A model generated the notes under the pieces. It worked only from the letters and a program-made list of their open reading frames with translations. It made no database searches and was not told the origin of the DNA. Shown here piece after piece: positions 402 through 46,800 of a DNA stretch of 64,000 nucleotides (within the stretch, counting starts at the first letter, position 1; every line of letters begins with the position of its first letter). The translations under genes were made by a program, and so were the position numbers. The DNA comes from Candidatus Omnitrophota bacterium (GTDB lineage: Bacteria; Omnitrophota; Omnitrophia; Omnitrophales; Aquincolibacteriaceae): the NCBI GenBank assembly GCA_041674705.1, contig JBAYVF010000007.1:1322-65321 (forward strand), written 5' to 3'.

Positions 402-426
402 GGGTGACAACGATCACCCCATATCC

Positions 427-460
427 AAGACCCGGTCTTCGAAATTGAAGACCGGGTCTT
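427..460 (+). terminator. Perfect 13-bp-stem hairpin downstream of gpmA
   Basis: AAGACCCGGTCTT (427-439) and AAGACCGGGTCTT (448-460) are exact reverse complements with an 8-nt loop, followed by AAATTTT. Confidence 0.5.
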
Positions 461-473
461 AAATTTTGGGGTA

Positions 474-515
474 TAAAAAAGGCGAGGCTGGAAATCCGGT
501 CTCGCCTTTTTTTTT
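474..515. terminator. Bidirectional rho-independent terminator between convergent gpmA and rubrerythrin genes
   Basis: An A-run at 474-480 precedes a GGCGAG (481-486) / CTCGCC (501-506) stem, followed by a T9 run at 507-515. Confidence 0.7.
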
Positions 516-528
516 AAGCAGAATTCTT

Positions 529-1567: not shown

Positions 1568-2704
1568 CTAGGTTTTGACAGAGGTCTTTTCGAGTAAAAA
1601 AGCAAAAACATCTTCGGAAAGGAATTTCCCACGGGTTGTCAGACGGATTTTTTCGTTCACTTTTTCAATCAGCCCATCCTCACAAAGCGTTTTTATCCGC
1701 TCCCGCAGCGCAGGATAGATCCTCGAAAATGAAGCCGGCGTGACGCCTTCACAAAGCCTGAGGCCTGTCACAAGAGTTTCCGTTTCTTTCTCCTCTTCCG
1801 ACAGTTTATCTCCCGCATCATTCTCCCAATCCATTGCTTCACATTTCTCAAGATAGCGCATAAGGCCCGGAGCAAATTGTGAACGAACTCCGTTCAAATA
1901 AGTAAAAGCCCCGGGACCTAGCCCGAGGTATTCCTGATTGTGCCAATAGATGAGATTGTGCCGCGACGCGAGGCCCGGCTTCGCGAAGTTCGAGATCTCG
2001 TAGTGTTCATATTTCGCGCCCGTGAGCATTTCAATCGCGCTTTCGTACATCCGGGCGTGATCTTCTTCTCCCGGGAGATCCAGCTTTCCTTCTTTTTGAA
2101 GTTTCCCGAAAGGAGTCTCTCCGTGAACCTCAAGATCGTAAAGCGAGACCTGGGAAGCATTGAGCTCGATGCATCGCCGCACGGAATCGCGGAAATCCTC
2201 GACCGTCTGTCCCGGCAAGCGCAACATCAGATCAAAACTGATGTTCGAAATACCGGCCGCATGAATCTTCGCGACCGTTTCTTCGATATCCCGCGCCGCG
2301 TGCCGCCGGCCCAGCCTTTGAAGGATCTCATCCCGGAACGACTGACAGCCAAGGCTGATACGATTCACTCCGATATCATGAAGAGCTTTGAGTTTCGCGT
2401 GATCGCCATCTCCTGGATTGAATTCGCAGGTGAATTCATATCCTTTCTTGAACTGGAACGCCTTATGGACTTCGTCGGCCAGCCGCTGGAGTTCCGGAAT
2501 GCTCAAGGACGAGGGTGTCCCTCCGCCAAGATAGAACGTATCAAGGGAAAGTTTCCCATGGAACTCACGGACATGCTTTATTTCTGCGGAGAGCGCTCTA
2601 AAGAACCGTTCCTGCAAGGCTGGCGTCTGCTGCGCCGTAGTTACAAAATTGCAGTAATCGCATCGCGTACGACAAAAAGGTATGTGGAGGTAGAGGCCGC
2701 GCAT
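1568..2704 (-). CDS. hemW: Radical SAM family heme chaperone HemW / oxygen-independent coproporphyrinogen-III oxidase-like protein
   Basis: 378 aa. The N-terminal LYLHIPFCRTRCDYCNF carries the CxxxCxxC radical SAM motif, and GGGTPS and a HemN_C-like C-terminus follow. Confidence 0.85.
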   Translation of the reverse strand: MRGLYLHIPFCRTRCDYCNFVTTAQQTPALQERFFRALSAEIKHVREFHGKLSLDTFYLGGGTPSSLSIPELQRLADEVHKAFQFKKGYEFTCEFNPGDGDHAKLKALHDIGVNRISLGCQSFRDEILQRLGRRHAARDIEETVAKIHAAGISNISFDLMLRLPGQTVEDFRDSVRRCIELNASQVSLYDLEVHGETPFGKLQKEGKLDLPGEEDHARMYESAIEMLTGAKYEHYEISNFAKPGLASRHNLIYWHNQEYLGLGPGAFTYLNGVRSQFAPGLMRYLEKCEAMDWENDAGDKLSEEEKETETLVTGLRLCEGVTPASFSRIYPALRERIKTLCEDGLIEKVNEKIRLTTRGKFLSEDVFAFLLEKTSVKT

Positions 2705-2750: not shown

Positions 2751-2761
2751 TCCCACTTAGC

Positions 2762-2833
2762 AAGGCGTACGGAGTACGGTGTACGGCGCAACAGCGCGAA
2801 AGCAATACCCCGTACGCCTTCCGCCGTACGGGG
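2762..2833. repeat. GTACGG-rich palindromic element, copy 1
   Basis: Left arm AAGGCGTACGGAGTACGGTGTACGGCG and right arm CCCCGTACGCCTTCCGCCGTACGGGG form an imperfect inverted repeat built from GTACGG/CCGTAC units. The element contains the complement of the GGCGGAAGGCG core. Confidence 0.8.
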
Positions 2834-5647: not shown

Positions 5648-5740
5648 ATGACACTTATTTATTGGATCGGCGGAATCGTCTTCCTCTTGCTTTTTGTTTA
5701 TCTTGTGGCCGCTCTTCTGAAACCGGAACTGTTCTCATGA
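5648..5740 (+). CDS. kdpF: K+-transporting ATPase subunit F
   Basis: The 30-aa product [30 protein letters not shown] has the KdpF-type YLxxALLxPExF ending. An AAAGGGG RBS is present, and the stop overlaps the kdpA ATG (ATGA at 5737-5740). Confidence 0.8.
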   Translation: MTLIYWIGGIVFLLLFVYLVAALLKPELFS

Positions 5741-7479
5741 CCGCAAATAACCTCATTCAATGTTTTGTTTTTCTGGCTTTGCTCCTTTTGTGCGTTAAGC
5801 CGCTCGGCGCCTACATGGCGCGTATCTATTCCGGAGAGCCCGCCTGGTTAAACAAGTGGCTGGAACCCTTGGAGAATGGATTTTACAAGCTTTGCGGCGT
5901 TAAGCCTGAAGAGGAAATGGGCTGGAAGACCTATACGGTCGCGATGATGCTCTTCAACATTCTTGGAATCCTCGCGGTTTATGCGCTCCAACGTTTCCAG
6001 GCCATGCTTCCTTTTAACCCGACGCACATGCCGGCAGTCCCGGCAGATCTTGCTTTCAATACCGCTGTCAGTTTTGCTACAAATACGAACTGGCAAAGCT
6101 ACGGCGGCGAAACCACGTTGAGTTATTTGACGCAGATGCTGGCGTTGACCGTTCAGAATTTCGTCTCGGCAGCCTGCGGCATGGCCGTTCTTGTGGCGCT
6201 GATCCGTGGATTTATCCGTAAACAGGCGCAAACGATCGGGAATTTTTGGGTCGACCTTGTCCGCTCTGTTCTCTATATCCTACTTCCACTCGCCTTTGTT
6301 TTTTCCATTGTTTTGGTTTCTCAGGGCGTTGTTCAAACCCTCCGTCCTTCTCAAAAAATCGTCCTCCTTCAGCCGATCAAAGATCCGTCCGGAAAGACCA
6401 TCGTCGGCCAAGAACTAGCTCTCGGCCCCGCCGCGTCACAAGTGGCAATCAAACAGCTCGGGACCAATGGCGGCGGCTTTTTTAATGTTAATTCCGCGCA
6501 TCCGTTCGAGAATCCCACGCCGCTTTCTAATTTACTGGAAGTCCTTGCGATCCTGCTGATCCCCGCGGCGCTGTGTTATACCTTTGGCTCCATGGTCAAA
6601 GACAAGCGGCAGGGATGGGCGTTGCTTATCGCCATGCTGATCATTTTCATTCCTTGTCTTCTGACCTGCGTACGTGCCGAACAATCCGGAAATCCCCTTC
6701 TGACGAAACTGGGGATCGATCAGTCCGCCAGCGCGCTTCAGGCCGGTGGAAATATGGAAGGCAAGGAAGCCCGTTTCGGGATCGTGAATTCCGCGATCTG
6801 GGCCACGGCAACGACCGCCGCATCGAACGGCTCGGTCAATGCCATGCACGATTCTTTTATGCCACTCGGCGGACTGATCCCTCTCTGGCTGATACAACTT
6901 GGAGAAGTCGTCTTCGGCGGGGTCGGGTCCGGTCTCTACGGCATGATCGCCTTCGCCATTGTTGCGGTTTTTGTCGCGGGGCTCATGGTCGGACGGACGC
7001 CTGAATATCTCGGGAAAAAGATCGAATCTTATGAAATGAAAATGGCCTCAATCATGATCCTGATCCCGACGATCGTGGTGCTTATGGGAACTGCGATCGC
7101 GGTCGTGCTTCCGGCCGGAAAAGGAGCGATCTCTAATCCCGGGCCGCACGGGTTCAGTGAAATCCTTTATGCTTTTTCTTCGGCCGGCAACAATAACGGC
7201 AGCGCCTTTGCCGGACTCTCCACGAATAACTTTTTTTATAATATCGCCCTGGGATTCGCCATGTTCCTTGCAAGATATTGGCTGGCAATCCCGGCGCTGG
7301 CGATCGCAGGATCTTTAGCAAAAAAGAAAATCGTCCCTACAAGCCCGGGGACTTTGCCGACTCATACGCCGCTTTTCATCCTGTTCCTGGTTGCCGTCAT
7401 CCTGATTGTCGGCGCTTTGACATTTTTCCCGGCGCTCGCCCTCGGTCCTATTGTGGAACATCTGATGATCGCCGGTTAA
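5737..7479 (+). CDS. kdpA: K+-transporting ATPase subunit A
   Basis: [31 protein letters not shown]... is a polytopic protein with KdpA selectivity-filter-like segments ([27 protein letters not shown]). The start was chosen at the ATG overlapping the kdpF stop. Confidence 0.95.
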
Positions 7480-7490
7480 AGGAGCTTTGC

Positions 7491-9572
7491 ATGAGCACGA
7501 CCTATAAACACAAATCACATTCTTTATTCGATCCGAAGATCGTTCTGCCGGCCATCTTTGATTCTTTCAAAAAACTCGATCCTCGTGAACAGATCAAAAA
7601 CCCGGTCATGTTCGTGGTGCTGATCGGAAGCATTCTGGCCACAGGACTTTATTTCCAGGCCGTGCTTGGAAAAGGAGAAGCTCCGGCGAGCTTCATCCTG
7701 GCGATCACACTTTGGCTCTGGTTCACGCTTATTTTTGCGAATTTTTCAACGGCCATGGCCGAAGGCCGCGGAAAGGCGCAAGCAGCAAGTCTTAAAAAGG
7801 CCAAACAAGACACCCCCGCAAAGAAACTCGCTAAAGCGCAATATGGCTCTGCTTTCGAAACTGTTTCCGCAACCGCGCTCAAGTTGGGGGATCTCGTTTT
7901 GGTAGAAGCCGGAGATATGATCCCCATGGATGGTGAAGCTATCGAAGGCGTAGCCTCGGTCGATGAAAGCGCGATCACGGGTGAAAGCGCCCCGGTCATT
8001 CGTGAAAGCGGCGGCGACCGCAACGCTGTGACGGGCGGAACCCGGGTCCTTTCCGATTGGTTGATCCTCCGGATCACTTCGAACCCCGGTGAAACGTTTC
8101 TGGACCGGATGATCGCGATGGTCGAAGGGGCCAAACGCCAAAAAACGCCGAATGAGATCGCTCTCAGCATTTTGTTGGCCGGTTTTACGCTCATTTTTCT
8201 TTTGGCGACCGCAACGTTGCTTCCCTTTTCGATCTATAGTGTGGCTTCCGCAGGACACGGCGCCGTGATCACGGTCACTGTGTTGGTCGCTCTTTTGGTC
8301 TGTTTGATCCCCACCACGATCGGCGGGCTTCTCCCCGCGATCGGAATTGCCGGGATGGATCGAATGATCCAGGCGAATGTAATTGCCATGTCCGGCCGTG
8401 CGGTCGAGGCGGCCGGCGATGTAGACATTCTTTTGTTGGATAAAACCGGCACTATCACGCTCGGGAACCGGCAAGCCGTGGCCTTCATTCCAGCTCAAGG
8501 CATCACGAAGGAAGAACTCGCCGATGCCGCGCAACTCGCTTCCCTTTCGGATGAAACTCCGGAAGGCCGGAGCATCGTGGTCCTTGCTAAAGAAAAATAC
8601 GGAATCCGGGAACGCCAGATCCATGAGCTCGGCGCTCATTTTATTCCTTTCACGGCGCAAACCCGCATGAGCGGCGTAACCCTCGGCGATGGCCGCGAGA
8701 TCCGCAAAGGATCTTCGGATGCGATCGAGACTTATGTCAAAAAGCTGGGCGGTACTTTTCCAGACGCTCTTCGCTCCAGCATCGATTTGATCTCCAGGGA
8801 CGGCGGGACACCGCTTGTCGTAGCGGAACATGGACGCGTCCTCGGCACGATCCAGCTCAAGGACATTGTCAAAGGCGGTATCAAAGAACGTTTCGCGGAA
8901 CTCCGAAAAATGGGGATCAAAACCATCATGATCACGGGAGACAATCCCCTGACCGCCGCCGCGATCGCGGCCGAGGCGGGTATGGATGATTTCCTGGCGC
9001 AAGCGACACCCGAAACAAAATTGAAATTGATACGGGATATGCAGTCCGGCGGGCGCCTGGTGGCCATGACCGGCGATGGAACAAACGACGCTCCTGCTCT
9101 AGCCCAAGCAGACGTGGCCGTGGCTATGAATACCGGCACCCAGGCCGCGAAAGAGGCCGGAAATATGGTGGACCTCGACTCTAACCCCACAAAACTGATC
9201 GAGATCGTGGAGATCGGGAAGCAACTTTTGATGACACGTGGCGCTTTGACCACTTTTAGTATCGCCAATGACGCGTCAAAATATTTTGCGATCATTCCTG
9301 CGGCGTTCGTCGGCACCTATCCAGCGCTCGCGAAACTGAACATCATGCATTTGGCGACGCCTTCAAGTGCGGTCCTTTCTGCGGTCATTTTTAACGCGCT
9401 CATTATCATCGCGCTCATTCCTTTGGCGCTACGCGGCGTTCGCTACCGGGCAGTAGCTGCCAACCGTCTCCTCCGAGACAACATTTTGATCTACGGAGCC
9501 GGCGGCATTATTACGCCGTTCATCGGGATCAAGTTAATCGACTTATTGCTTGTCGCGCTTCATTTGACGTAA
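7491..9572 (+). CDS. kdpB: K+-transporting ATPase subunit B (P-type ATPase)
   Basis: P-type ATPase motifs are present: [17 protein letters not shown] and [20 protein letters not shown] lies 6 nt upstream of the ATG at 7491. Confidence 0.95.
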
Positions 9573-9573
9573 T

Positions 9574-9626
9574 CCTGAGACTAATGTCTCAGGACAATAA
9601 GCAGATCGAAACTTGACGTTTCGATC
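9574..9626 (+). promoter_or_regulatory. Two perfect intercistronic hairpins between kdpB and kdpC
   Basis: CCTGAGAC-TAAT-GTCTCAGG (9574-9593) and GATCGAAAC-TTGAC-GTTTCGATC (9604-9626). Neither is followed by a T-run. Confidence 0.5.
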
Positions 9627-9641
9627 CATTGGGGAAAACTT

Positions 9642-10223
9642 ATGATACGAGAACAATTAAGACCGGCTGTAACTTCTTTTTTTCTGCTAACATTGATCAC
9701 AGGAATTCTTTATCCTTTATCTGTTACAGGGATCTCCCAGATCTTTTTCAAAGATCAAGCAAATGGAAGTCTGATTTTCAGAAACGGACAACCTTCGGGT
9801 TCTTTGTTGATCGGACAACCTTTTGATGATCCTAAGTATCTTTGGGGACGTTTGTCCTCCACAGCTCCTGTTTCTTTCAATGCCGCTGCTTCGTCAGGAT
9901 CCAACTTCGGTCCCACGAACCCGAATTTGCTGAGTGCTGTCCAAACGAGAATCAAAAGCCTGCGGGACGCAGATCCGAAAAATAAAAACCGTATCCCTGT
10001 GGATCTTGTCACCGGCTCTGCCAGCGGCCTCGATCCTCATATCAGTCCGGCGGCAGCCGAATACCAGGCCTCCCGGATCGCAAGAATAAGAAAAATATCC
10101 AGGGAAATAATCCGGTCGATTATTCGCCAACATACACAAGAACGCTTGTTTGGTATAATCGGCGAGCCTATCGTGAACGTCCTGGAAGTCAACCTGCAGT
10201 TGGATGCAAGCGTGAAGGAATAA
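9642..10223 (+). CDS. kdpC: K+-transporting ATPase subunit C
   Basis: 193 aa with an N-terminal TM anchor and KdpC-conserved SGSNFGPTNP and SASGLDPHISP segments. Confidence 0.9.
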   Translation: MIREQLRPAVTSFFLLTLITGILYPLSVTGISQIFFKDQANGSLIFRNGQPSGSLLIGQPFDDPKYLWGRLSSTAPVSFNAAASSGSNFGPTNPNLLSAVQTRIKSLRDADPKNKNRIPVDLVTGSASGLDPHISPAAAEYQASRIARIRKISREIIRSIIRQHTQERLFGIIGEPIVNVLEVNLQLDASVKE

Positions 10224-12416
10224 ATGATGGAAAACAGACCGGATCCGGATCAACTTTTAAAGCAAGTACAAGCGGAAGAAGCCCGGCGCGGAAAACTCAA
10301 GATCTTTTTCGGTGCCATGGCTGGCGTTGGCAAAACTTATTCTATGCTGGAAACCGCCCGGCACCGTAAAAAAGATGGTGTGGATGTTGTCGTCGGCTAT
10401 GTCGAAACCCACAAACGGACCGAAACCGAAGCTCTTCTTGAAGGTTTGGAGATCCTCCCCCGAAAAACGGTTTCTTATAAGAACGTGGACCTCCCGGAAT
10501 TCGACATCGACGCCGCTCTCAAAAGAAATCCTTCCCTCATCCTGGTCGATGAATTGGCCCACACGAACGCTCCGGGGTCCCGCCATTTGAAACGGTGGCA
10601 GGATGTCGAGGAATTGCTTGCCGCCGGGATCGATGTTTATACCACCTTGAATGTCCAGCATTGCGAAAGCGTCAACGATGTCATCACCCGGGTCACCGGT
10701 GTGGTCGTCCGGGAAACAGTCCCGGATACGTTCATTGAAAAGGCGGCCGAGATCGAACTCGTCGACCTTCCCTCCGAAGACCTTCTCAAACGTTTGAAAG
10801 AAGGCAAGGTCTATCTGGGCCCTCAAGCCGAACACGCCGCTCAGAATTTCTTCCAGCCCGGAAATCTCATCGCTTTGCGGCAGTTAGCGCTCCGTTACAC
10901 GGCAAAAAACGTAGACGCTCAAATGCGCAGCTTCAAAGGATTGCATTCTATTTCAAAGATCTGGAATGTCGGAGAACGATTCCTGGTTTGCATCAGCGAA
11001 AGCCCGTCCGCGATGAACCTGATCCGGGCCGCCAAACGCATTGCTTCCGAGATCGGGGCGCCCTGGACCGTTGCCTACGTTGAATCGGTCTCCTTAAGGC
11101 AGACGGAAGTAGGAAAAAAACGAGCTTTTGAAATGCTTCGCTTTGCAGAAAAACTGGGCGCCGAGGTCGTAACTCTAAATGGACAAGACATCGGAGATGA
11201 ATTAATCGCCTACGCTCGCTCTAATAACATCACGAAACTGATCGTTGGAAAACCGCAGAGAAACCGTTGGCAAGAATTTGTCTCAGGATCGATCGTCAAT
11301 AACCTTGCCCGCAAATGCGGAGAGATCGACCTTTATGTCATCAGCGGGGATCGACAAGCAGCCATTGCTCAGCTTAGAGCCGCTGAACCCCCGAAATCAT
11401 TTTCATGGAAAAATGCCTGCATCGCCCTCGGGATCGTTGCCCTCTGCTCCATGGTTAACGCCCCTCTCTCCCGCTATCTGGCACCCGCTAATCTTGTCTT
11501 AATCTATTTGCTGGGCGTCATCTGGATCTCTTTCCGCTACGGGAAGCGCGTCTCCTTCCTAGCCTCCTTACTCAGCGCGCTTTCCTTCGACTATTTCTTT
11601 ACGCAGCCCTATTTTTCCTTCACGATCTCTAACGGGCAGAATGTTTTTATATTTGTCGCCATGGCCCTCATAGGGTTCTTAATCAGTAGCTTGACGGACC
11701 GTCTAAAACAACAAACAGCTGCAACACGCATGCGTGAAAATCGCAACCGCATCCTCTATGAGCTGATGCAGGATCTTGCTAAAACGTCGACTCCGAACGG
11801 TCTTTTCCAGGCGCTCCTCCATCACGTTCGGAATTACTTCCAATTACCGGTTGTCATCTTTACTCCCAACTCCCGAAAAGAATTATCGGTGCATATTGAA
11901 AGTTTGGCAGGACATGAATTGCTCCCCAACGAAAAGGCTGTCGCTCAATGGACCTACGAACACAAACAAATAGCAGGACAAGGGAGTGACACACTCCCGG
12001 CGGCACAGGGGCTCTATCTCCCACTGGTCGGATTGGAAGTGACCCCCGGGGTACTTGGGATATTTCCTAAAGAAAAAAATCCATTCACAAATCCGGAGCA
12101 GTTACATCTGCTCCAGATGCTTGTGAACCAGACAGCATTAGCCGTGGAGGGAGCTGAGCTTGCCTTCGCGGCGCTTCGGGCTGAGGACGCGATTGAAAAA
12201 GAGCGTATCCACAACCTTCTCTTAAGTTCTTTCTCCTATGAGCTTCCGGGCCCACTTTCCGAGATCTCACAGGCAGCGGCTGAATTGCTCAAGCCAGAAA
12301 TCTTTAATGACACGGCAAAAAAGGACGCCCTTATAAAACTGATCCAGACAAAGGCTCAAGCGTTGAACAAATTAACTGCGGAGCTCCCCAAGATTCTTGA
12401 ATCCGACAATCCGTAA
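10224..12416 (+). CDS. kdpD: KdpD-like sensor lacking a kinase catalytic domain (degenerate H-box)
   Basis: The N-terminal KdpD domain (GAMAGVGKTYSML) is followed by a Usp-like region, four TM segments and a GAF-like region. Then comes ERIHNLLLSSFSYELPGPLSEI, where the canonical SHDLRTPL His is Tyr (codon 12237-12239). The ORF ends about 60 aa later with no HATPase_c N/G boxes. Confidence 0.8.
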   Translation: MMENRPDPDQLLKQVQAEEARRGKLKIFFGAMAGVGKTYSMLETARHRKKDGVDVVVGYVETHKRTETEALLEGLEILPRKTVSYKNVDLPEFDIDAALKRNPSLILVDELAHTNAPGSRHLKRWQDVEELLAAGIDVYTTLNVQHCESVNDVITRVTGVVVRETVPDTFIEKAAEIELVDLPSEDLLKRLKEGKVYLGPQAEHAAQNFFQPGNLIALRQLALRYTAKNVDAQMRSFKGLHSISKIWNVGERFLVCISESPSAMNLIRAAKRIASEIGAPWTVAYVESVSLRQTEVGKKRAFEMLRFAEKLGAEVVTLNGQDIGDELIAYARSNNITKLIVGKPQRNRWQEFVSGSIVNNLARKCGEIDLYVISGDRQAAIAQLRAAEPPKSFSWKNACIALGIVALCSMVNAPLSRYLAPANLVLIYLLGVIWISFRYGKRVSFLASLLSALSFDYFFTQPYFSFTISNGQNVFIFVAMALIGFLISSLTDRLKQQTAATRMRENRNRILYELMQDLAKTSTPNGLFQALLHHVRNYFQLPVVIFTPNSRKELSVHIESLAGHELLPNEKAVAQWTYEHKQIAGQGSDTLPAAQGLYLPLVGLEVTPGVLGIFPKEKNPFTNPEQLHLLQMLVNQTALAVEGAELAFAALRAEDAIEKERIHNLLLSSFSYELPGPLSEISQAAAELLKPEIFNDTAKKDALIKLIQTKAQALNKLTAELPKILESDNP

Positions 12417-27642: not shown

Positions 27643-27662
27643 TTTTATACCCAGGATTTCGT

Positions 27663-27722
27663 AAGGCGTACGGAGTACGGCGAAAAACATTACGCAATAC
27701 GCCGTACACCTTCCGCCGTACG
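27663..27722. repeat. GTACGG-rich palindromic element, copy 2
   Basis: AAGGCGTACGGAGTACGGCG ... GCCGTACACCTTCCGCCGTACG. Confidence 0.8.
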
Positions 27723-27724
27723 AG

Positions 27725-34106: not shown

Positions 34107-34188
34107 GTGATAAGTTATAAGTGGTAAGTGATAAGAAGAGTAAGCGCCAAGTATTTTTTACTTATCACTTACAGCTTACCACTTACAC
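34107..34188. repeat. GTAAGT/GATAAG-unit composition-skewed hairpin
   Basis: GTGATAAGTTATAAGTGGTAAGTGATAAGAAGAGTAAGCG faces CTTATCACTTACAGCTTACCACTTACAC. It lies between the BI-1 stop and the ABC ATPase start. Confidence 0.6.
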
Positions 34189-35466: not shown

Positions 35467-35530
35467 AAGGTACGGAGTGCAGCGCAAGGTGTACGGCGGA
35501 AAAGCTTACGCCGTACTCCGTACGCCGTAC
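35467..35530. repeat. GTACGG-rich palindromic element, copy 3
   Basis: AAGGTACGGAGTGCAGCGCAAGGTGTACGGCGG ... CGCCGTACTCCGTACGCCGTAC. Confidence 0.8.
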
Positions 35531-36036
35531 TAGGTTTTTAGGAAGTACAGCCCCACATAGACTTTCGGATCGACAAGGAATCCTTTTTTTTCCATCTCAT
35601 AAAGCCAAATATCCGCCTCTTTAAGCGGTATTTCATGGACCCGGATGGATTCTGAGGCATCGCCGCCCCCCGGACCTTTTTTCACTACGTCGAGAGCCTG
35701 AAAGAAGGCGATAGTTTCAGAACTCAGGCCGCTTGAAACTGGACCCTCCACCAAAAATGATAAATGCTCCGCTTCATAACCGGTTTCTTCGAAAAGTTCG
35801 CGCCGGGCAGCGGCCTCCATCGTCTCCGGGTCATGCAGCATCTGGTCATTCACAAGTCCTGCCGGCCATTCGATCACTTGGGCTTCCACCGGCCTTCGGA
35901 ACTGTTCGACAAAAATAACTTTTCCTTCTTTCGTCATCGGCACGATAACGACGATCCCGCTGCAATTAGTCCGTTTGACGTACTCCCAATTGTCTTCGGA
36001 GATCAGATGAAGATATTTTCCTTTGTGTAAGATCAT
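35530..36036 (-). CDS. NUDIX hydrolase (ADP-ribose pyrophosphatase-like)
   Basis: The Nudix box is GLVNDQMLHDPETMEAAARRELFEETGY. Confidence 0.85.
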   Translation of the reverse strand: MILHKGKYLHLISEDNWEYVKRTNCSGIVVIVPMTKEGKVIFVEQFRRPVEAQVIEWPAGLVNDQMLHDPETMEAAARRELFEETGYEAEHLSFLVEGPVSSGLSSETIAFFQALDVVKKGPGGGDASESIRVHEIPLKEADIWLYEMEKKGFLVDPKVYVGLYFLKT

Positions 36037-36137: not shown

Positions 36138-37901
36138 TTAGAAACCAGCAGCTTCTCCGCTCGCGCGGGGGTCGCTTTCGCCCTCTATTCTACCAGAACC
36201 CTCTTCAAAACAAACCATTTGCGCAAGTCCGACCGGATCTTCTTTTTCGATATCATGCCCCAAAAGAGCGAGCTTCAAACGGATCATTTCCTGACCATAG
36301 AGCCCGGACTCCATGTGAAGCGCTGTGTCCCGGACCAAAAGCCTTGGAGATTCCACCGCTCCGGAGCAGGACGCGCCAAGATCAAGCTTCTGGACTATCA
36401 CATTAAGAAGCACCGCCGCCGCATCATCCGGACCATAAGCATTCAACAGAAGATCGGGCTTCCCATTTTTAAAAATGAATGTGGGAGCTTCGGATCCGCG
36501 GGGTCTTTGCCCTCCGGAGATAAGTTCCGCGGACCGGGGATCCTTCACAGACGATGGATCCGCGGCAAAATCAGTGAGCAGATCATTGAGAAAAAAACCG
36601 TAGCCCGGAACCTTCAGCGCCGAACCAAAGGCATCTCCCAATGTCGCGGTTAGGATCGCGATATTTCCCTGCGGGTCTACGATCATAATGGAAGATCCCG
36701 CGCGCTTCCTTCCTTTCTCGGCCCCAGCCACTTTCATCTCATCGGATTTTAAAACCCGATCAAACTGAATGGTATTCATCCGGTCTTGCGCCCATGTTTC
36801 CGAAAGGAGTTCGTTCAGCGGAATATCAAAAAGATCCGGGTCGGCAACCCCTGAGCGCTTCGAGAAGGCGACCTTCTGGATTTCTCCGAGGATATGGTAT
36901 GTCTCCGGCACCTGCCCAAATCCGGGGATGCCAAAACGGGAAAGAAGATTGAGCCCGCGAAAAAGCATCACGCCTCCGTCGGCCGGAGGTCCCGCGCTGA
37001 AGAGATCGTATCCCTGATAAGTGACATGAAGGGGATCCCGCGCCGCGATCGTATAACCCTCAAGGTCCTTTTCATCCAAGAGGCCTGCCCGATAAACATT
37101 CTTACGAACAGCGCGCGCTATCTCTTTCGCGACCACACCGCTATAAAAAGTCTTCGCCCCCTTCGTCTGGATCAGACGGAACGCCTTGGCAAGTTCGGGT
37201 TGAGAGAGTTTTTTCCCGGCTTCGAGAGGAATTCCATTCTCGAAAAAAACCGACTTCGCGGAGTCCAAAAGCGCCAATCTTTTCGAATTTTCACGAAGCG
37301 CTTCCGCAAGGGCCTGCGACACTTCGGCTCCTTCTTCCGTATAACGGATCGCCGGATCCATCAGTTTCGCAAAAGGAAATTTATGCGTTCCGTATTTAGC
37401 ATGAACCTCTTCGGTTAATTTTAAGAGTCCCGGAACACCGACCGAAAGCCCGCCTGTGTTTCTTTCCGGTTGATAAGGAAGTGGTTTGCCAGTCTCGCCC
37501 AGGAACATCTTCGGGAAGGCTTTGCCGGGGGCCTTAACACTTCCATCGAAAGAGAGAATGCGCCGGGTGCCCACATCATAAAAAAGAAAAAGGCCGCCGC
37601 CCCCGATCCCGGACGCCTGCGGCTCGACCACATTGAGCACCCATTGGGCTGTCACAGCCGCGTCGACTGCATTCCCGCCCTGTTTCAGCACTTCTAAGGC
37701 GGCTTGCGTCGCGCGTGGATCCGGAGTAATGACCATGGCTTTTTCGCCTGCGGCGGCATGCAGCTCCGGAAAGAAAAGGACGGTGAGGAGAAGAACAAGT
37801 AAGGCGGAAGGCGTACGGCGTACGGAGAAAATTTTTAAAAAAAAGCTCTTAAAAAACGCCGTACACCGTACTCCGTACGCCGTATCCAAGAGAATTTTCA
37901 T
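36138..37901 (-). CDS. ggt: Gamma-glutamyltransferase
   Basis: GGNAVDAAV, GIGGGGLFLFY and the autoprocessing site region ...SEAPTFIF(K) are present, and the family length fits. The N-terminal 30 codons are encoded by a GTACGG element, so the start is uncertain. Confidence 0.85.
   Translation of the reverse strand: MKILLDTAYGVRCTAFFKSFFLKIFSVRRTPSALLVLLLTVLFFPELHAAAGEKAMVITPDPRATQAALEVLKQGGNAVDAAVTAQWVLNVVEPQASGIGGGGLFLFYDVGTRRILSFDGSVKAPGKAFPKMFLGETGKPLPYQPERNTGGLSVGVPGLLKLTEEVHAKYGTHKFPFAKLMDPAIRYTEEGAEVSQALAEALRENSKRLALLDSAKSVFFENGIPLEAGKKLSQPELAKAFRLIQTKGAKTFYSGVVAKEIARAVRKNVYRAGLLDEKDLEGYTIAARDPLHVTYQGYDLFSAGPPADGGVMLFRGLNLLSRFGIPGFGQVPETYHILGEIQKVAFSKRSGVADPDLFDIPLNELLSETWAQDRMNTIQFDRVLKSDEMKVAGAEKGRKRAGSSIMIVDPQGNIAILTATLGDAFGSALKVPGYGFFLNDLLTDFAADPSSVKDPRSAELISGGQRPRGSEAPTFIFKNGKPDLLLNAYGPDDAAAVLLNVIVQKLDLGASCSGAVESPRLLVRDTALHMESGLYGQEMIRLKLALLGHDIEKEDPVGLAQMVCFEEGSGRIEGESDPRASGEAAGF
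37803..37884. repeat. GTACGG-rich palindromic element, copy 4 (inside the 5' end of the ggt ORF)
   Basis: GGCGGAAGGCGTACGGCGTACGGAG ... CGCCGTACACCGTACTCCGTACGCCGTA. It is translated as ...TAYGVRCTAFFKSFFLKIFSVRRTPSA... Confidence 0.8.
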
Positions 37902-39923: not shown

Positions 39924-39994
39924 CCGTACGGCGGAAGGCGTACGGCGTAACGCGTATTTAGTTTTCGCCGTACTCCGTACGCCCTACGCCGTAC
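39924..39994. repeat. GTACGG-rich palindromic element, copy 5
   Basis: CCGTACGGCGGAAGGCGTACGGCG ... CGCCGTACTCCGTACGCCCTACGCCGTAC, in a divergent intergenic region. Confidence 0.8.
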
Positions 39995-41317: not shown

Positions 41318-41587
41318 ATGAAATTTTTAATACATCTTAGCGCGTGGGCAGGCGCCGTCCTTCCCCTTTTCAATATTCCGCTCATGATGCGGATCATCAA
41401 GCGGAAGTCTGCTGACGATATCAGTCTGGTCTGGCTTTTCGGAGTTTGGATCTGCATCCTTCTCATGTCTCCCGCGGCCCTCACTTCGCAGGATTTCGCA
41501 TTCCGCGCCTTCGGCTGGACCAACGTTATTTTTTTTACCGGGGTCGTCATCGTGACCGTGAAGTATCATCATAAATTCAAAAAATGA
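41318..41587 (+). CDS. Small three-TM membrane protein, PQ-loop/SemiSWEET-like
   Basis: 89 aa: MKFLIHLSAWAGAVLPLFNIPLMMRIIKRKSADDISLVWLFGVW... The layout resembles SemiSWEETs, with IPL in place of the PQ motif. The family call is tentative. Confidence 0.4.
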   Translation: MKFLIHLSAWAGAVLPLFNIPLMMRIIKRKSADDISLVWLFGVWICILLMSPAALTSQDFAFRAFGWTNVIFFTGVVIVTVKYHHKFKK

Positions 41588-41647
41588 GTACGGCGGAAGG
41601 CGTACGGTGTAAAAGCTTCTTTCGCCGTACTCCGTACGCCGTACCCC
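41588..41647. repeat. GTACGG-rich palindromic element, copy 6
   Basis: GTACGGCGGAAGGCGTACGGTG ... CGCCGTACTCCGTACGCCGTACCCC. Confidence 0.8.
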
Positions 41648-41661
41648 TTACGGTCTTTTAG

Positions 41662-42036
41662 ATGCATCCCACCTATAAAAGAATGCTCGCGGGGCTTGAG
41701 AAAAAAAAGAAGGCCTCGCGCCGTAAAAAAACGTCCTCCGGCAAGTGGTCCCTTTATATCCTGAAATGCGGCGACGGATCTTTTTACACGGGGATCACCA
41801 ACGACCTCGAACGACGCTTCAAAATGCATCAAGCCGGCAAGGCTTCCCGCTACACCCGCTCCCACGGCCCTGTGGAGATGCTTTATTCGGAGAAATGCGG
41901 CGACCGGTCCAGCGCTCTCATCCGGGAATGTGAAGTGAAGGAATGGCCGCGAACCAGGAAAGAGAAATTAATAAAATCGAGAGACGGAAAACGCGGGACG
42001 TTTTGCAAGGCGGAAGGCGCCGCGCGTGCGGCGTAA
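41662..42036 (+). CDS. GIY-YIG nuclease-family protein (UPF0213-like)
   Basis: WSLYILKCGDGSFYTGITNDLERRFKMHQAG...RYTRSHGPVEMLYSE...ALIRECEVKEW. The last ~10 codons (CKAEGAARAA) are encoded by a degenerate GTACGG-element arm. Confidence 0.8.
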   Translation: MHPTYKRMLAGLEKKKKASRRKKTSSGKWSLYILKCGDGSFYTGITNDLERRFKMHQAGKASRYTRSHGPVEMLYSEKCGDRSSALIRECEVKEWPRTRKEKLIKSRDGKRGTFCKAEGAARAA

Positions 42037-42072
42037 AAATTTTTCCATCGCCGTACGCCTTACTCCGTACGC
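42007..42072. repeat. GTACGG-rich palindromic element, copy 7 (degenerate left arm)
   Basis: AAGGCGGAAGGCGCCGCGCGTGCGGCG ... CGCCGTACGCCTTACTCCGTACGC, between convergent genes. Confidence 0.7.
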
Positions 42073-42074
42073 TT

Positions 42075-42674
42075 TTAATTCAATTGGTCTTCCAGCTTTG
42101 CGGTGAGGGCATCGATCTGCTTTAGAAGATAATCCGGAACAAGATCTTCCTCTTCAAGCTGGGTCTTCGCAGAATTCAAGAAACCAATGAGTCGCCTCAA
42201 AATGGAGCCTCGCTTTTGCTCCTTAAGTTCCGGCGTATCCTTCGGCGCGTGCGTCTCGAGGATCTTCTTCACCTGCGCCCGGACCTCCTTGACCTCCTTG
42301 CCTTCATTGAGGACGTCATTGCGGAGCTCGGCAAATTCGTTGGTGGGGATGTTCTTGTTGTTTTTGGCAAGCCGGAGCACGTTCACCGACTCATAATCCG
42401 GGATCTTCTTGGGCGTTTCTTCTTCCGTATAATCCGGCTTTACGATCCGAGGCTCTTCTTTTTCCAGGAAAGAATAGGACTTGATAAGCTTCGACGCCGT
42501 CGCCTCTTTAATGCTCAGTTCTTTATGACAATAAGTCTCGAACGCCTGATAACCCCATTCTTTGTAGAGCTTGTTCTTATAGATGGAGAAGAGGTGCTGA
42601 CCCAGCTGGATCCAGCTCGCTTTGTGATGCTTGGCGATCTCAACGGTTTTTATTCGCAATTCATCGTTACCCAT
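42075..42674 (-). CDS. Hypothetical protein (charged, helical)
   Basis: About 199 aa from MGNDELRIKTVEIAKHHKASWIQLGQHLF... I recognise no family. The longer ORF start at 42755 would translate hairpin sequence. Confidence 0.55.
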   Translation of the reverse strand: MGNDELRIKTVEIAKHHKASWIQLGQHLFSIYKNKLYKEWGYQAFETYCHKELSIKEATASKLIKSYSFLEKEEPRIVKPDYTEEETPKKIPDYESVNVLRLAKNNKNIPTNEFAELRNDVLNEGKEVKEVRAQVKKILETHAPKDTPELKEQKRGSILRRLIGFLNSAKTQLEEEDLVPDYLLKQIDALTAKLEDQLN

Positions 42675-42693
42675 GATTTTCACCCTATGAAAT

Positions 42694-42773
42694 AGTAAGT
42701 AGTAGGTGGTAAGTAGCATGTAGAAAAACCGTTTCGGTTCACGGCCACCTACCACATACTACCTACTACATAC
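42694..42773. repeat. GTAAGT/GTAGG-unit composition-skewed hairpin
   Basis: AGTAAGTAGTAGGTGGTAAGTAGCATGTAG faces CCACCTACCACATACTACCTACTACATAC. Confidence 0.6.
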
Positions 42774-42777
42774 TTTC

Positions 42778-43725
42778 TTAAATGAATTCCAGATTTACTT
42801 TCTTCGGAATAATTCCGTGCTGATATGCTTCATCAAGCAGCTTTCGAAAGCCGGCTTCCCCGTCTTGGCCGATGTCGAGCGTGCGCTTGTTCACATACAT
42901 GGCCACAAAGCGATCGTTCAAGTCCTCAGAGATCCCACGGCCGAATTGGCTCGCGTATTCTAAGGCATCCTTCCGGTGGTTCAAGGCATATTCGATGCTT
43001 TCTTTAAAGAGGCGGGAAAATCCTTTGATCGTTTCTTCTCCGAGATCGCGGCGGATCACATCGATCCCGAGCGGAAGCGGAAGCTTCGTTTTCTCGTGCC
43101 ACCATCCCCCGAGATCCAGAACTTTTTCCAGCCCATGCTCCGCGTGCGTGATCTGTCCTTCGTGGATCACAAGACCATAATCGGCCTCGCCGCTTTTCAC
43201 CGCGTCGAAAACTTTGTCGAAAGGAACAAAAACAACTTCGTACGGTGTACGGAGTACGGCGGAAGGCGACCTGGATTCTGACTTTGCATACAGCTGGAGA
43301 GCCAGATAAGCAGTAGTGAGCTTGCCGGGAATAGCTATTTTTTGCACGGAGTGCGGAGTGCGGGGCACGGCGTTCGTTTTATGCGTCTCGCCGTACGCCT
43401 CACGCCGTACGAGAATCGGTCCATAATTGTCCCCCACGCTCGCTCCCGACCGCATGACGAGATATCGGTCTGCCAGATAAGCATACGCGTGACAAGAAAC
43501 GGCCGTGACCTCGAGGGAAACCTCCGAGGTTGCGTGCATTCCAACCTCGGAGGTTGGAGAGGTAGAAAGCGCGCGCTGATTGAGGGATTCGATGTCTTCG
43601 ATCACATGTTCGACTTTGAAGCCACGCATATCGATTTTCTCATGCGCCAGGGCATAGAACATGAACGCGTCGTCGGGGTCCGGGCTGTGGCCGACTCGGA
43701 TGAGCTTAGTATCGGGAGTCTTCAT
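42778..43725 (-). CDS. Menaquinone (futalosine-pathway) biosynthesis protein, MqnA/MqnD family, carrying three in-frame repeat insertions
   Basis: IRVGHSPDPDDAFMFYALAHEKID...IEDIESLNQRAL...GPILV...IAIPGKLTTAYLALQLY...DYGLVIHEGQ...LDLGGWWHEKTKLPLPLG matches PF02621-type proteins. The extra segments coincide with palindromic DNA elements. Confidence 0.75.
   Translation of the reverse strand: MKTPDTKLIRVGHSPDPDDAFMFYALAHEKIDMRGFKVEHVIEDIESLNQRALSTSPTSEVGMHATSEVSLEVTAVSCHAYAYLADRYLVMRSGASVGDNYGPILVRREAYGETHKTNAVPRTPHSVQKIAIPGKLTTAYLALQLYAKSESRSPSAVLRTPYEVVFVPFDKVFDAVKSGEADYGLVIHEGQITHAEHGLEKVLDLGGWWHEKTKLPLPLGIDVIRRDLGEETIKGFSRLFKESIEYALNHRKDALEYASQFGRGISEDLNDRFVAMYVNKRTLDIGQDGEAGFRKLLDEAYQHGIIPKKVNLEFI
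43239..43268. repeat. GTACGG-rich element, copy 8a (intragenic, half-element)
   Basis: CGTACGGTGTACGGAGTACGGCGGAAGGCG lies inside the mqn ORF and is translated ...SPSAVLRTPYEVV... Confidence 0.75.
43344..43411. repeat. GTACGG-type palindromic element, copy 8b (intragenic, GCACGG/GTGCGG variant)
   Basis: GCACGGAGTGCGGAGTGCGGGGCACGGCG ... CGCCGTACGCCTCACGCCGTACG lies inside the mqn ORF and is translated ...AYGETHKTNAVPRTPHSVQ... Confidence 0.75.
43521..43553. repeat. Perfect 12-bp inverted repeat inside the mqn ORF
   Basis: CCTCCGAGGTTG (43521-43532), a 9-nt loop, then CAACCTCGGAGG (43542-43553). It is translated ...PTSEVGMHATSEV... Confidence 0.8.
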
Positions 43726-43774
43726 GGGAGAGGAATATAGGGGAAGTTCAAGGATTGGTCAATCTATCAACCAT

Positions 43775-43812
43775 GTACGGTGTAAAAACTTTTTCGCCGT
43801 ATTCCGTACGCC
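43775..43812. repeat. GTACGG-rich palindromic element, copy 9 (short)
   Basis: GTACGGTG ... CGCCGTATTCCGTACGCC, immediately downstream of the giant-ORF stop. Confidence 0.65.
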
Positions 43813-46800
43813 TTACGCAGAACGTAAGAGGGCAAACTGCGCCTGAACCTCGGAAACGAGGAAATGAATACGCTCACCGGCAAGACTGAGGAAGTTCTGG
43901 AACATTCTCGGGGTGATGCGTTGAACTGTAATATCCGAAAGCTGGTCTTTTAAAATTTCTGCGCCATAGAGAAGAGCTTTGAGGGCCATACGTTCTGTTT
44001 TAACTTGTTTTCTAAGAGCCGTTCTGGCGACCGAAAGGTTCTTTTCTGAGGCGACAATGATGCGCCGGTCCGGCGCAAGCCCGGCATTGAATTGTTCTAT
44101 AAAGGCGCGGTCTGTGACATCCCCCGCGATCACGGCCACGGGCGCATCCCCCAGGATCGTTCTGACCGCCGCTAAAAAGCCCTGGCCCAGCGCAAATTCG
44201 CGGCCGAGAATGAACGCATCCCCGGACTGAACTGTTTTGATGCCAAGCGCCTTCTTTGCTGCGTCAAAACGTGCCCGCATGAGAGTCTCCTGCGCTTTCT
44301 TGGCAAACGAGACCGGCAAGCGAGCAATGGCTGCCTCGGCTGCATTCAGCGTATAAGCAAAGAGAGAAATGATCCCGTCCATGATCTTTTCCGTCACGCC
44401 GCGGAGACCTTGTTCCGTGCCGCCGCCAAGACGCGCGTTCTCCTGAACAAACTTCTCCATGGTAAAAGCCTGCAACTTCGCCGGCAGTGGCAGATCCGAA
44501 ACCTTAGTGCGCATTTCGGAGCGGGGTTTTTCACTTTCTTTAAGAAAATCTTTTGCTTCAAGCGCTTCCCCAAAGAGCTTTGTCAAGAAAAGCAGGTTCC
44601 CCATCTCTTTTCCGTTTATCGTCTCAAGAGCAAGGATGATTTCCACCCGACCATCCAATCGGCCGATGGTTAATTCTTTATAAAATGCTTCCATCGCAGG
44701 ACGGTTCTCATTTAAGGTGTTTTGCAGCCGGCCAATAGCTTCACGAATTTCTGGTTTTGTTCTCTCAAGACCTTCTTTTTTATATTGACCGAACCACGCA
44801 AGATCCCAAAGGATCCGTGATTTCTCTTTTTCAGAGAATTGCCGCGTTTCCGAGCGGGGTTTTGTGGAAGTTAAAGCTTCGGTCTCTCGCAATGCGCCAA
44901 TGAGCTTTTCAATATCTTTGGCTTGAATCTTTATATTCCCGCCATGCTCTCCAAGAGCCGCAACCGCCGCCTCGGGAATACGCGACTGCACGATCACGGG
45001 CATGGTCAATCCGAGTTGCTTGATCTCATCAAGAACTGCCGCGGCTGAATTTGCGTGCTGCGCCTTCAGACTCATTTTTTGAAACTTTTCGACCAAGACC
45101 AAATGATAATCCAAAACAACCACGTTAATCTCGCTTCCCCTTTTTCTTAAGAGCAATTTCGCCTCTTTTACGTTGGAGGCCTCTAACACAAGCGTCGCAG
45201 GGAACAGTTGCTTTATTGCGGACGAATAAAAGCGCATCTCTCCATGATGATCTTCCACCAACAAAACGACTTTCCCGGCATTCTTGGTGTTTTGCGCTTC
45301 GTTTGTTGCGCCGAGTTCCTGGCGCGCCTGCCCGTCCGGTAGGCGGGCTTCGGAGCGGGGTGTGGCGTAGAGTTTCTCAACCTCCGCCAAGATGGTTTCG
45401 ACCACCTCCGGCGATAGTTCCTGACCGTTCATTTTTCGTAAATAATGCTGAAAAACCCGGAGTCTTTCGTCGCGAGGATGAGTCGAGCTAAGAAGTTCAC
45501 CGGAGATCGTCGGCAGAGCCCCTGCGGTAAGCCCGTAGGTCACAGCAGCCCAAAGCGCGGCCAGAACGGCCTTGGCGGAATCAAAGTCCTGAATCGAGGG
45601 GCTTTGGGACAGCGTCGTCGCCAAATCATTGATCGTAGGGCTTCCGAAAGAAAGAAAGCTGACCATCTGCACGACCGTTGTTTTCTGATCAAGCGCCGTG
45701 AAATAACCCAAAGCGGTTTCTTCAATAAGTTCGGACGCTTTAGCAACGTCGGATTTTTTCTGATCTTCTTCCCTCGTCTTTTCGGGAAGAGCGGCTTTGA
45801 TCCGAACCAAAAGAGGCGGCAATTCTTCAAAGGCTTTTATTTTTTCTAAAAGACGGATCGTGGCGGAGCCTTCCACGCCTAACGCCTTTGCCATCTTCCG
45901 AGCATCGGTTTCGTCAAAAGCGCTCAGAAGGACCATTCTCGGAGTATCAAATTTTTCAAGCATGAGACGGATCCATTCGGATCCTCTGACAAGCGGCATA
46001 GAATTATCGGTGACGATCAAGGGCCGCCCTTGCTTTGCTGCGATCTTGTCTTTGATCTTTTTTAAAGCCGAAACAACGTCCCCGGCTTCAACGACCGAAT
46101 ACCTTTCCCCACGGACAAGATCAACAACAGCCTCTCGGAACACACCCGAGTCGTCGACCACAAGGACCCATTCCCCTTGCGATGCCGCGTTCCATTTTTC
46201 GGCCAAGGCCGTAACATCGATCCCGTGGGAAAAAAGAGTTTTTTCAGTCTCTTCCGTACCGCGCGCTTCAGAGCGGGAATCGGCATTAGGCCACAGGGTC
46301 ACACGCGCTCCGAACTCAGTCCCGGTGGTGCGGTTTACTATCGGTATGCGCTGATATAAAAGACCGGCTTCTTCAATAATGTGAAGCCCCTCTCCGGCGC
46401 CCCCCAGGAGGTACTTCCCGGCTTTTTTCTTCGCCTCTACCCATTCGGCACTTTTTCCATCCTCCTTTTTGACCAGATTATAGGCTTCTATTTTCGAGCC
46501 TGTCAGATCCGCCCAAAGAAAGATCGGGAGTTGAAAGTCCAGTTTGCTGCCATGCCTAAAGGAGTTTTTCAATAATTCTCCGGTGGCCGTGAGGTGAAGG
46601 CCCATGGCCCTAAATCCGATCTTAGAAGCAACTTCTTTTTCGAAAAGATGAGCAAATCGATCGAGGCGAGCGGCGAAAACGCCGAAACGGTCGGTGTTCT
46701 CTGCGTCTTTTTCGGGAATATTCCGTAGATCCAGCTTGAGCATCTTTCCGCTGCGGATGCTTTCGACGATCAGCGCCTCATCAAGATCCGCAAAATCAAT

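Follow-up and report, generated by a model that had tools for sequence, protein, structure and literature searches.

Hairpin repeat DNA translated in frame within three loops of an MqnD-like gene from Omnitrophota

We find that an MqnD-like gene in a 64,000-nucleotide stretch of DNA from a Candidatus Omnitrophota bacterium (contig JBAYVF010000007.1 of assembly GCA_041674705.1; the whole stretch is hereafter the window) carries three extra segments of palindrome-derived DNA that are translated in frame, and that two of these three inserts (sites 2 and 3) belong to a hairpin family that fills the intergenic spacers of this genome. In most orthologs of this clade of Omnitrophota, a hairpin family particular to the lineage resides in these three loops. 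The explanation we favor, and regard as probable, is that short hairpin repeats resembling repetitive extragenic palindromes (REPs) came to be fixed, in the reading frame of a functional gene, at three permissive surface loops, where they are tolerated and undergo recurrent turnover.

Three inserts in an intact, constrained gene

The MqnD-like gene is an intact open reading frame (ORF; Table 1), and a profile search matches its product to PF02621 (VitK2_biosynth, MqnA/MqnD) with an E-value of 5e-65 and 219.9 bits against a cut-off of 26. Protein residues 9-301 are aligned to positions 1-251 of the 252 in the profile, which leaves ~42 residues without a profile counterpart, in agreement with the ~40 inserted residues given in a preliminary description of this DNA. 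The solved homologs AF1704 (1zbm_A; E 6e-65) and Thermus MqnD (2czl/3a3u; E 1e-49) align over the same protein, and gaps open in the 1zbm and 2czl/3a3u chains precisely where that description had placed three extra in-frame segments: 14 residues after NQRAL (site 1), 12 or 10 before KIAIPG (site 2) and 12 or 9 after LYAK (site 3). Compared with solved structures and with baseline homologs the segments are inserted, and they are not conserved family loops; the reading frame stays open through all three, as had been claimed. An NCBIfam search of the protein returns no match and no equivalog; activity as MqnD proper (1,4-dihydroxy-6-naphthoate synthase) would follow from the names given to it by its sources (JGI, NCBI). 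The identical protein is recorded in four sources and on two contigs, one of them 75.8 kb long.

The core of the protein is under strong purifying selection, with a ratio of nonsynonymous to synonymous divergence (dN/dS) of 0.04-0.09 at a dS of 0.9-2.5 over 246 core codons compared with 11 orthologs. An AlphaFold2 (AF2) model built on 38 orthologs has a mean predicted local distance difference test score (pLDDT) of 83.9 and a predicted TM-score (pTM) of 0.83, and predicts the periplasmic-binding-protein-like two-lobe fold of MqnD (2czl/3a3u), with target-normalized Foldseek TM-scores of 0.91 to 1zbm and 0.90 to 2czl. All three inserts are modeled as coil between regular secondary-structure elements; pLDDT values below 50 are confined to residues 57-67 and 117-119, within inserts 1 and 2, and pLDDT falls to ~72 in the insert 3 block. 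This low-confidence coil is in keeping with the surface loops that the preliminary description had anticipated.

The three inserts differ in what they preserve of a hairpin. Site 1 is a perfect inverted repeat, as previously described, with arms of 14 bp (43519-43532 and 43542-43555; 100% complementary) rather than the 12 bp given earlier, separated by a 9-nt loop; by our own estimate, which is not a program output, ~0.01 perfect hairpins like this one are expected in 64 kb. It forms in the minimum-free-energy structure of the window mRNA, and its arms (ACCTCNGAGGT) resemble the neighboring native codons CTCGAGGTC. Site 2 had been attributed to a repeat-element copy, and we find that it aligns over its whole length with intergenic elements of the GTACGGN type, its own arms having diverged (GTGCGG vs GTACGG). 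Site 3 likewise derives from a repeat element, since it has an exact 14-mer, GCCTTCCGCCGTAC, in common with three intergenic copies (0.02 matches expected), but it is a half-element and not, as once thought, a palindrome in itself, because only the C-rich 3' arm is present; over 24 nt, this arm and the G-rich site 2 arm at 43389-43412, 127 nt away, are 83% complementary. Repeats are here translated in frame in the loops of a functional protein, and the earlier comparison with Rickettsia palindromic elements (RPEs) stands as a description of behavior.

Heptamer hairpins in the window and at orthologous sites

In the GTACGGN element, 3-4 tandem heptamers (GTACGGN, some of them GGAAGGC variants) are followed by a short T-rich loop and by inverted NCCGTAC heptamers; the whole measures ~60-90 bp. 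The pattern GTACGGNGTACGG, with up to two mismatches, has 47 matches in the window against 1.76 expected, and none of 100 shuffles reaches 47. Seven intergenic copies, full or partial, are mapped in the window (Table 1), and the gamma-glutamyltranspeptidase (GGT) ORF has an eighth within its 5' end. No in-frame ATG, GTG or TTG is found between this GGT element and the hydrophobic segment that follows, which makes it probable that the element is translated and forms the n-region of the signal peptide (..AYGVRCTAFFKSFFLKIFSVRRTPSA..). The GGT ORF is 587 aa long here and 573-580 aa in syntenic orthologs.

A comparison of 120 close orthologs (61-79% identity, 273-352 aa; Omnitrophota wherever a source is named) reveals that they differ in length almost exclusively at the three sites. 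Length variance is 236 at the three sites vs 39 elsewhere, with a near-constant non-insert core (median 264 aa, interquartile range 263-264), and syntenic neighbor genes are near-constant in length across the same contigs. Sites 1, 2 and 3 range over 3-42, 9-37 and 2-28 aa, respectively, and insert-bearing orthologs are found in many independent assemblies. At site 1, a K/R-G-E or similar segment of 3-4 aa is present in 97 of the 120, and 13-42 aa belonging to several unrelated sequence families in the other 23; because the insert replaces KGE, the KGE orthologs are not derivable from insert-bearing ones by simple loss. Site 3 has a 2-3 aa baseline (mostly NF, EF or DF) in 20 orthologs and at least 13 aa in 71. 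In homologs from other phyla, site 1 is the short baseline segment, and some distant ones are also insert-bearing, at site 2 (L116, L147, L152) or site 3 (L043, L053). Four of these, L053 (a Tepidisphaerales metagenome-assembled genome, MAG) and L116, L147 and L152 (unassigned metagenome contigs), carry in-frame tandem heptamer arrays (CCAACGN, CGCCGAA, GGCACGA/GCACTCA) at the site 2 or site 3 loop. Loop permissiveness contributes to where inserts are located.

Ortholog DNA was drawn from GTDB genomes (L001-L018) and from the contigs of chosen proteins (L161-L164). The inserts in these loci are palindromes built on lineage-specific heptamers, at the same three sites (Table 1), with palindromes not made of heptamers at site 1 in L162 and at site 2 in L161. 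The families have a layout in common, 3-4 heptamers, a loop ending in TTTT(C/A) and inverted heptamers, and the GTACGG family and the GGATGG family both contain GGAAGGC units. In L003, L006, L008 and L009 the families at the sites are also present as intergenic hairpins on the same contigs, and the 21 kb of L163 contain five intergenic copies of GCAACG and two of GGATGG, each of them between called genes. The control segments of the 11-mer sharing test behind these assignments could overlap inserts, and we used only its positive locations, after sequence inspection.

The family found at a site does not follow the divergence of the protein. The neighbor-joining tree of the 120 core sequences is star-like, and gain counting was replaced by a bootstrap nearest-neighbor test on 12 loci. 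By core distance the window is nearest to L162, L163 and L003, which carry GGATGG or GCAACG, and L001 (GTACGG) is closest to L008 (GCAACG); L162 and L163 are mutual closest relatives, yet differ at sites 2 and 3. This incongruence between family identity and core protein distance points to turnover. Intermediates of decay are seen as well: site 2 of L002 is an internally deleted form of the L001 element, and the 3' arm kept in L163 is gone in L008 and L081. Site 2 of L008 is an expanded array of about six heptamers in a single orientation.

Table 1. Location of the MqnD-like gene, its inserts, related repeats and neighboring features; coordinates are those of the window unless a locus is named
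Feature	Location	Strand	Remarks
MqnD-like gene hosting the three inserts	42778..43725	-	intact ORF, 315 aa
Site 1 insert	43516..43566	-	translated as S54-S70 (STSPTSEVGMHATSEVS); takes the place of baseline K/R-G-E
Site 2 insert	43343..43412	-	full but diverged heptamer hairpin element, translated as L105-V127 (..VRREAYGETHKTNAVPRTPHSV); pattern matches 43344-43410
Site 3 insert	43238..43281	-	S149-Y162 (SESRSPSAVLRTPY); 3' (NCCGTAC)n arm only, at 43238-43268
GTACGGN copy, intergenic	2761..2832	.	between divergent HemN-like and PNPOx genes
GTACGGN copy, intergenic	27659..27723	.	between MBL-fold gene stop and TPR gene start
GTACGGN copy, intergenic	35470..35531	.	between NUDIX and glutaredoxin/ArsC genes
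GTACGGN copy, full, in GGT ORF (36138..37901)	37799..37885	-	residues ~6-33, before hydrophobic signal segment
GTACGGN copy, intergenic	39925..39994	.	between divergent transketolase-N and peptidase M24 genes
GTACGGN copy, intergenic	41583..41651	.	upstream of GIY-YIG gene
GTACGGN half-copy (C-rich arm)	42051..42070	.	between convergent GIY-YIG and 199-aa genes
GTACGGN copy, partial	43770..43820	.	spacer, giant gene stop to MqnD-like start
Further hairpin family	34111-34185		spacer; TAAGTGN-type heptamers
Further hairpin family	42693-42768		spacer; TAGTAGG/GTAGGTG-type heptamers, directly past the MqnD-like stop codon
Further hairpin family	417-470		palindrome AGACCCGGTCT, outside listed window ORFs; same core in frame at L161 site 2
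Giant ORF	43813-63993	-	directly upstream of MqnD-like gene, running off the window end
Conserved gene block	41662-43725		with the giant gene, same order in L162, L163 and L164
c-di-AMP riboswitch RF00379	5332-5480	+	69.3 bits, E 5e-14
kdpA-kdpB-kdpC-kdpD cluster	5662-12416		downstream of the riboswitch
Insert family GTACGGN			window, L001, L002
Insert family GGATGGN / GGAAGGC			L003, L009, L162, site 1 of L163
Insert family GCAACGN			L008, L081, sites 2 and 3 of L163
Insert family GGAACGN			L006, site 3 of L004
Insert family GGAGTTN			L007
Heptamer array, distant homolog (43-45% identity)	L116 ~2499-2540		
Heptamer array, distant homolog (43-45% identity)	L147 ~10290-10350		
Heptamer array, distant homolog (43-45% identity)	L152 ~487-525		
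Heptamer array, distant homolog (43-45% identity)	L053 ~9100-9160		

Three further hairpin families lie in the spacers of the window. The MqnD-like gene itself stands in a conserved gene order, in which a giant gene is followed by the MqnD-like gene, a 199-aa protein without a Pfam match and a stand-alone GIY-YIG nuclease, whose product is 110-155 aa long across loci and which has hairpin elements on its flanks. The part of the giant ORF inside the window encodes 6726 aa, and on the full contig the ORF reaches 9439 aa; it carries 14 R-[S/A]-E-x-R motifs (RSEAR, RSETR, RSEMR, RSEVR, RSELR, RAELR) spread along its length. A translated DNA repeat is ruled out for RSExR, as its codons differ between copies, and the motif is therefore conserved as protein sequence. 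It might act as a linker or a cleavage signal in a multi-enzyme polyprotein; a published study of Omnitrophota giant genes notes that their cleavage points are unknown (bioRxiv 10.1101/2023.11.21.568195). Elsewhere in the window, a c-di-AMP riboswitch is found upstream of a kdp gene cluster.

Origin and possible roles of the inserts

We propose that the repeats, once fixed in these loops, would be translated to extend the loops by short and probably disordered stretches, tolerated by the fold, as passengers and not as new functional domains. The same loops are held by lineage-specific families that are also intergenic in several genomes with informative flanks, which argues that they act as long-lived landing pads, where resident copies may have been repeatedly replaced or converted. 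We infer that the inserts are selfish or neutral, and, as the ORFs of the window include no transposase or RAYT and no target-site duplication was found, we also infer their mode of spread, which might be single-strand transposition directed by the hairpins, renewed insertion into hairpins already present, or correction between arms by template switching or gene conversion.

Several findings weigh against this explanation. No transposase or RAYT (Y1) is present among the ORFs of the 64-kb window, and a comparison of filled with empty sites yields no target-site duplication; a candidate AATCAG duplication in L163 was rejected as part of the first heptamer of the element. The gene positions of copies were checked in the window and in the 21-kb locus L163: the only intragenic copy outside the MqnD-like gene is that at the GGT N-terminus in the window, with none in the 20 kb of the giant ORF, and L163 has none. 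The concentration of copies in one 948-bp gene is not explained by loop permissiveness alone, and historical contingency, followed by re-use of the resident hairpins as targets, would be the simplest addition that accounts for it. No second copy of the site 1 hairpin is found in the window or in 164 fetched loci, and this single-copy hairpin nonetheless recurs with identical arms in L161, which is not a sister of the window: the arms are 100% identical, third codon positions included, and the insert is 83% identical overall, vs a core dS of 2.5 and a third-position identity of 0.49. L161 is the nearest neighbor of the window in 3 of 500 bootstraps, and the codons that flank site 1 differ between the two. 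A diverged form of the site 1 hairpin may be present in a further candidate, P0008. The arrangement of arms at sites 2 and 3 is a further difficulty. Insert peptides classed with hand-made motifs, a softer measure than the DNA results, give at site 3 ~86 orthologs with nothing but the 3' arm, 3 with a full element and none with only the 5' arm, and at site 2 the 5' arm alone in 43 and with its partner arm in 37; the 5' arm of site 2 is of the same family as the 3' arm of site 3 in 69 cases vs 6. This outer-arms-only layout is not predicted by independent insertions of whole elements, and could come from template-switch correction between arms or from a cis-acting role.

Such a role is a credible, if unlikely, alternative. 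The hairpins would then be kept for what they do in mRNA or single-stranded DNA, through a long-range stem between sites 2 and 3 around the KIAIPGKLTTAYLALQLY codons and the local hairpin of site 1, and could modulate translation speed, RNase III processing or transcript stability downstream of the giant gene, with the peptides as a by-product. We find that the minimum-free-energy structure of the window mRNA (fold z -2.7) pairs the site 2 arm with the site 3 arm and not with its own partner, enclosing these conserved codons, and the window site 2 x site 3 duplex has a predicted energy of -45.1 kcal/mol (z -3.9). Of the 12 loci that have an insert at site 3, 10 have predicted duplexes of -36 to -53 kcal/mol, those of L002 (-24.3 kcal/mol) and L004 (-24.9 kcal/mol) being weaker. 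Complementarity is kept despite wholesale replacement of the arms between lineages, and the arm families agree as stated above; site 3 retains only the arm needed for pairing; the site 1 stem is the one preserved to the third codon position in L161; and the gene is enriched for copies relative to its neighbors. Against this, complementarity follows automatically for whichever two copies are taken from a single palindromic family, and heptamer units are not in matching order (e.g., in L003), so that complementarity holds at the level of the family and is not position-by-position covariation. In L004 the two families are discordant, and since this locus, the 20 orthologs that lack a site 3 insert and the 97 with 3-4 aa at site 1 are all accommodated, neither structure is required. 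Ribosomes would unwind stems within an ORF, and no Rfam family is found at the elements at the gathering threshold. Taken together, a cis-regulatory or switch function has a small share of our confidence.

A stronger form, which we consider rather unlikely, takes the three loops as a conserved docking site, maintained by selection or by a directed mechanism, with the current family of each lineage written into sites 2 (5' arm) and 3 (3' arm), and a stem of ~-45 kcal/mol always bracketing the same 51-54 nt of essential codons. If this is true, the stem could serve as an RNA structure that regulates in cis, or as a switch, through RNase III or translation pausing, for the gene downstream of the giant ORF, or the arms could be an inverted-repeat pair for ON/OFF inversion. 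When 43238-43412 is inverted the gene gains a stop codon, and the inverted form could therefore only be an OFF state.

It is also conceivable, and in our view improbable, that the arms arise and homogenize in place, by heptamer slippage, fold-back or template-switch inverted copying and quasi-palindrome correction, with no transposition. The single-orientation array at site 2 of L008 suggests slippage of this sort, as do the arrays at site 2 in the distant homologs L116, L147 and L152 and at site 3 in L053, for which no intergenic copies are found in the available flanks, short as these outgroup flanks are (up to 20 kb); the likeness of the single-copy site 1 arms to adjacent codons, and the presence at site 3 of nothing but the inverted arm of the site 2 content, fit it equally. 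The same family with the same arm-loop-arm layout is, however, dispersed between genes in the window, L001, L003, L006, L008, L009 and L163, and a purely local origin therefore cannot explain the pattern.

That the segments are conserved family loops, a decaying pseudogene or an assembly artefact is very improbable: sites 2 and 3 do vary in length in other phyla as well, the sole point in favor of family loops, but the segments are hypervariable and match repeat DNA, the intact ORF, the low core dN/dS and the fold similarity to MqnD and AF1704 speak against a pseudogene, the alignments and selection analysis ruling out both readings, and the exact protein recurs in independent records, as do inserts in orthologs from independent assemblies.

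Comparison with known repeat systems

In-frame palindromic repeats are best known from Rickettsia, and we find them here in Omnitrophota, an uncultured phylum related to the Planctomycetes-Verrucomicrobia-Chlamydiae (PVC) group. RPEs, as summarized from Ogata et al. 2000 and 2002, are ~100-150 bp long, restricted to Rickettsia, and encode a conserved peptide specific to each family (PMC10969869, PMC3733652). Going by these summaries, the likeness is that of a dispersed palindromic family that sits in frame in conserved intact genes, at positions compatible with the fold, and with several copies per ORF possible. The elements described here differ in their size of ~60-90 bp, their tandem-heptamer arms and their host, and in that their peptides vary with reading phase and lineage; being shorter than RPEs and having such arms, they are therefore not members of that family. 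A further difference is that different families hold the same three loops according to lineage, and that one site is a half-element. Over 120 orthologs, the loops of one small enzyme have been re-occupied by different families, out of step with protein divergence, which is not described for the Rickettsia cases in these summaries.

REPs, in REP/REPIN-RAYT systems, are short imperfect palindromes that are mostly intergenic and near ORF ends, present in many copies and in genome-specific families (PMC3733652; Bertels and Rainey 2011, PMC3116915), and REP superfamilies are marked at one end by a conserved tetranucleotide, GTAG or CGTC (PMC3733652). There are also copies contained entirely within ORFs, where they encode 20-30 aa, in some cases with two to an ORF, e.g., in Opitutus terrae (Di Nocera et al. 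2013, PMC3733652), and in-frame REPs in that species, in Thauera and in other species, as reported in the same source, correct the preliminary description, which held such insertions to be rare outside Rickettsia. As far as these passages go, our elements are likewise short, multi-copy and mostly intergenic palindromes near ORF ends, and O. terrae also belongs to the PVC group. They differ in that, by inspection, no GTAG/CGTC tag is present at their ends, copies beginning with GTAAGG or GTACGG and GTAG being only an occasional heptamer variant, and in that no RAYT accompanies them among the ORFs of the window. Heptamer periodicity of the arms is not a REP feature in the descriptions available, and the passages of PMC3733652 and PMC3116915 make no mention of the re-occupation of orthologous loops by different families. 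MITEs, the miniature inverted-repeat transposable elements, are small non-autonomous repeats that can be read through within a host ORF, according to a review (PMC10969869). Compared with that account, the terminal inverted repeats derived from insertion sequences and the target-site duplication of MITEs are not seen here, the whole element being a palindrome.

Mazel and colleagues reportedly described, in 1990, cyanobacterial heptanucleotide repeats (short tandemly repeated repetitive sequences, STRRs) with species-specific units, dispersed over the genome mainly as intergenic direct arrays. Tandem heptamers with species-specific units and a dispersed distribution are common to both. The elements studied here differ in their arm-loop-arm palindromes and their phylum, and STRRs are not known to occupy enzyme loops in frame. 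Our literature searches turned up no account of hairpin or heptamer repeats from Omnitrophota, and hairpins with tandem-heptamer arms do not appear as a repeat type in those parts of the literature that the searches brought up. These repeats make the proteins of Omnitrophota MAGs longer and more diverse in length, and start-codon calls can be misled by them, the GGT N-terminus being an example; the MqnD-like gene offers a natural system for the study of target choice and re-use by REP-like elements, of protein tolerance to loops encoded by junk DNA and of regulatory gain by intragenic hairpins. Judged by analogy with the described systems, the elements appear to behave like RPEs and like intragenic REPs, but to belong to neither family.

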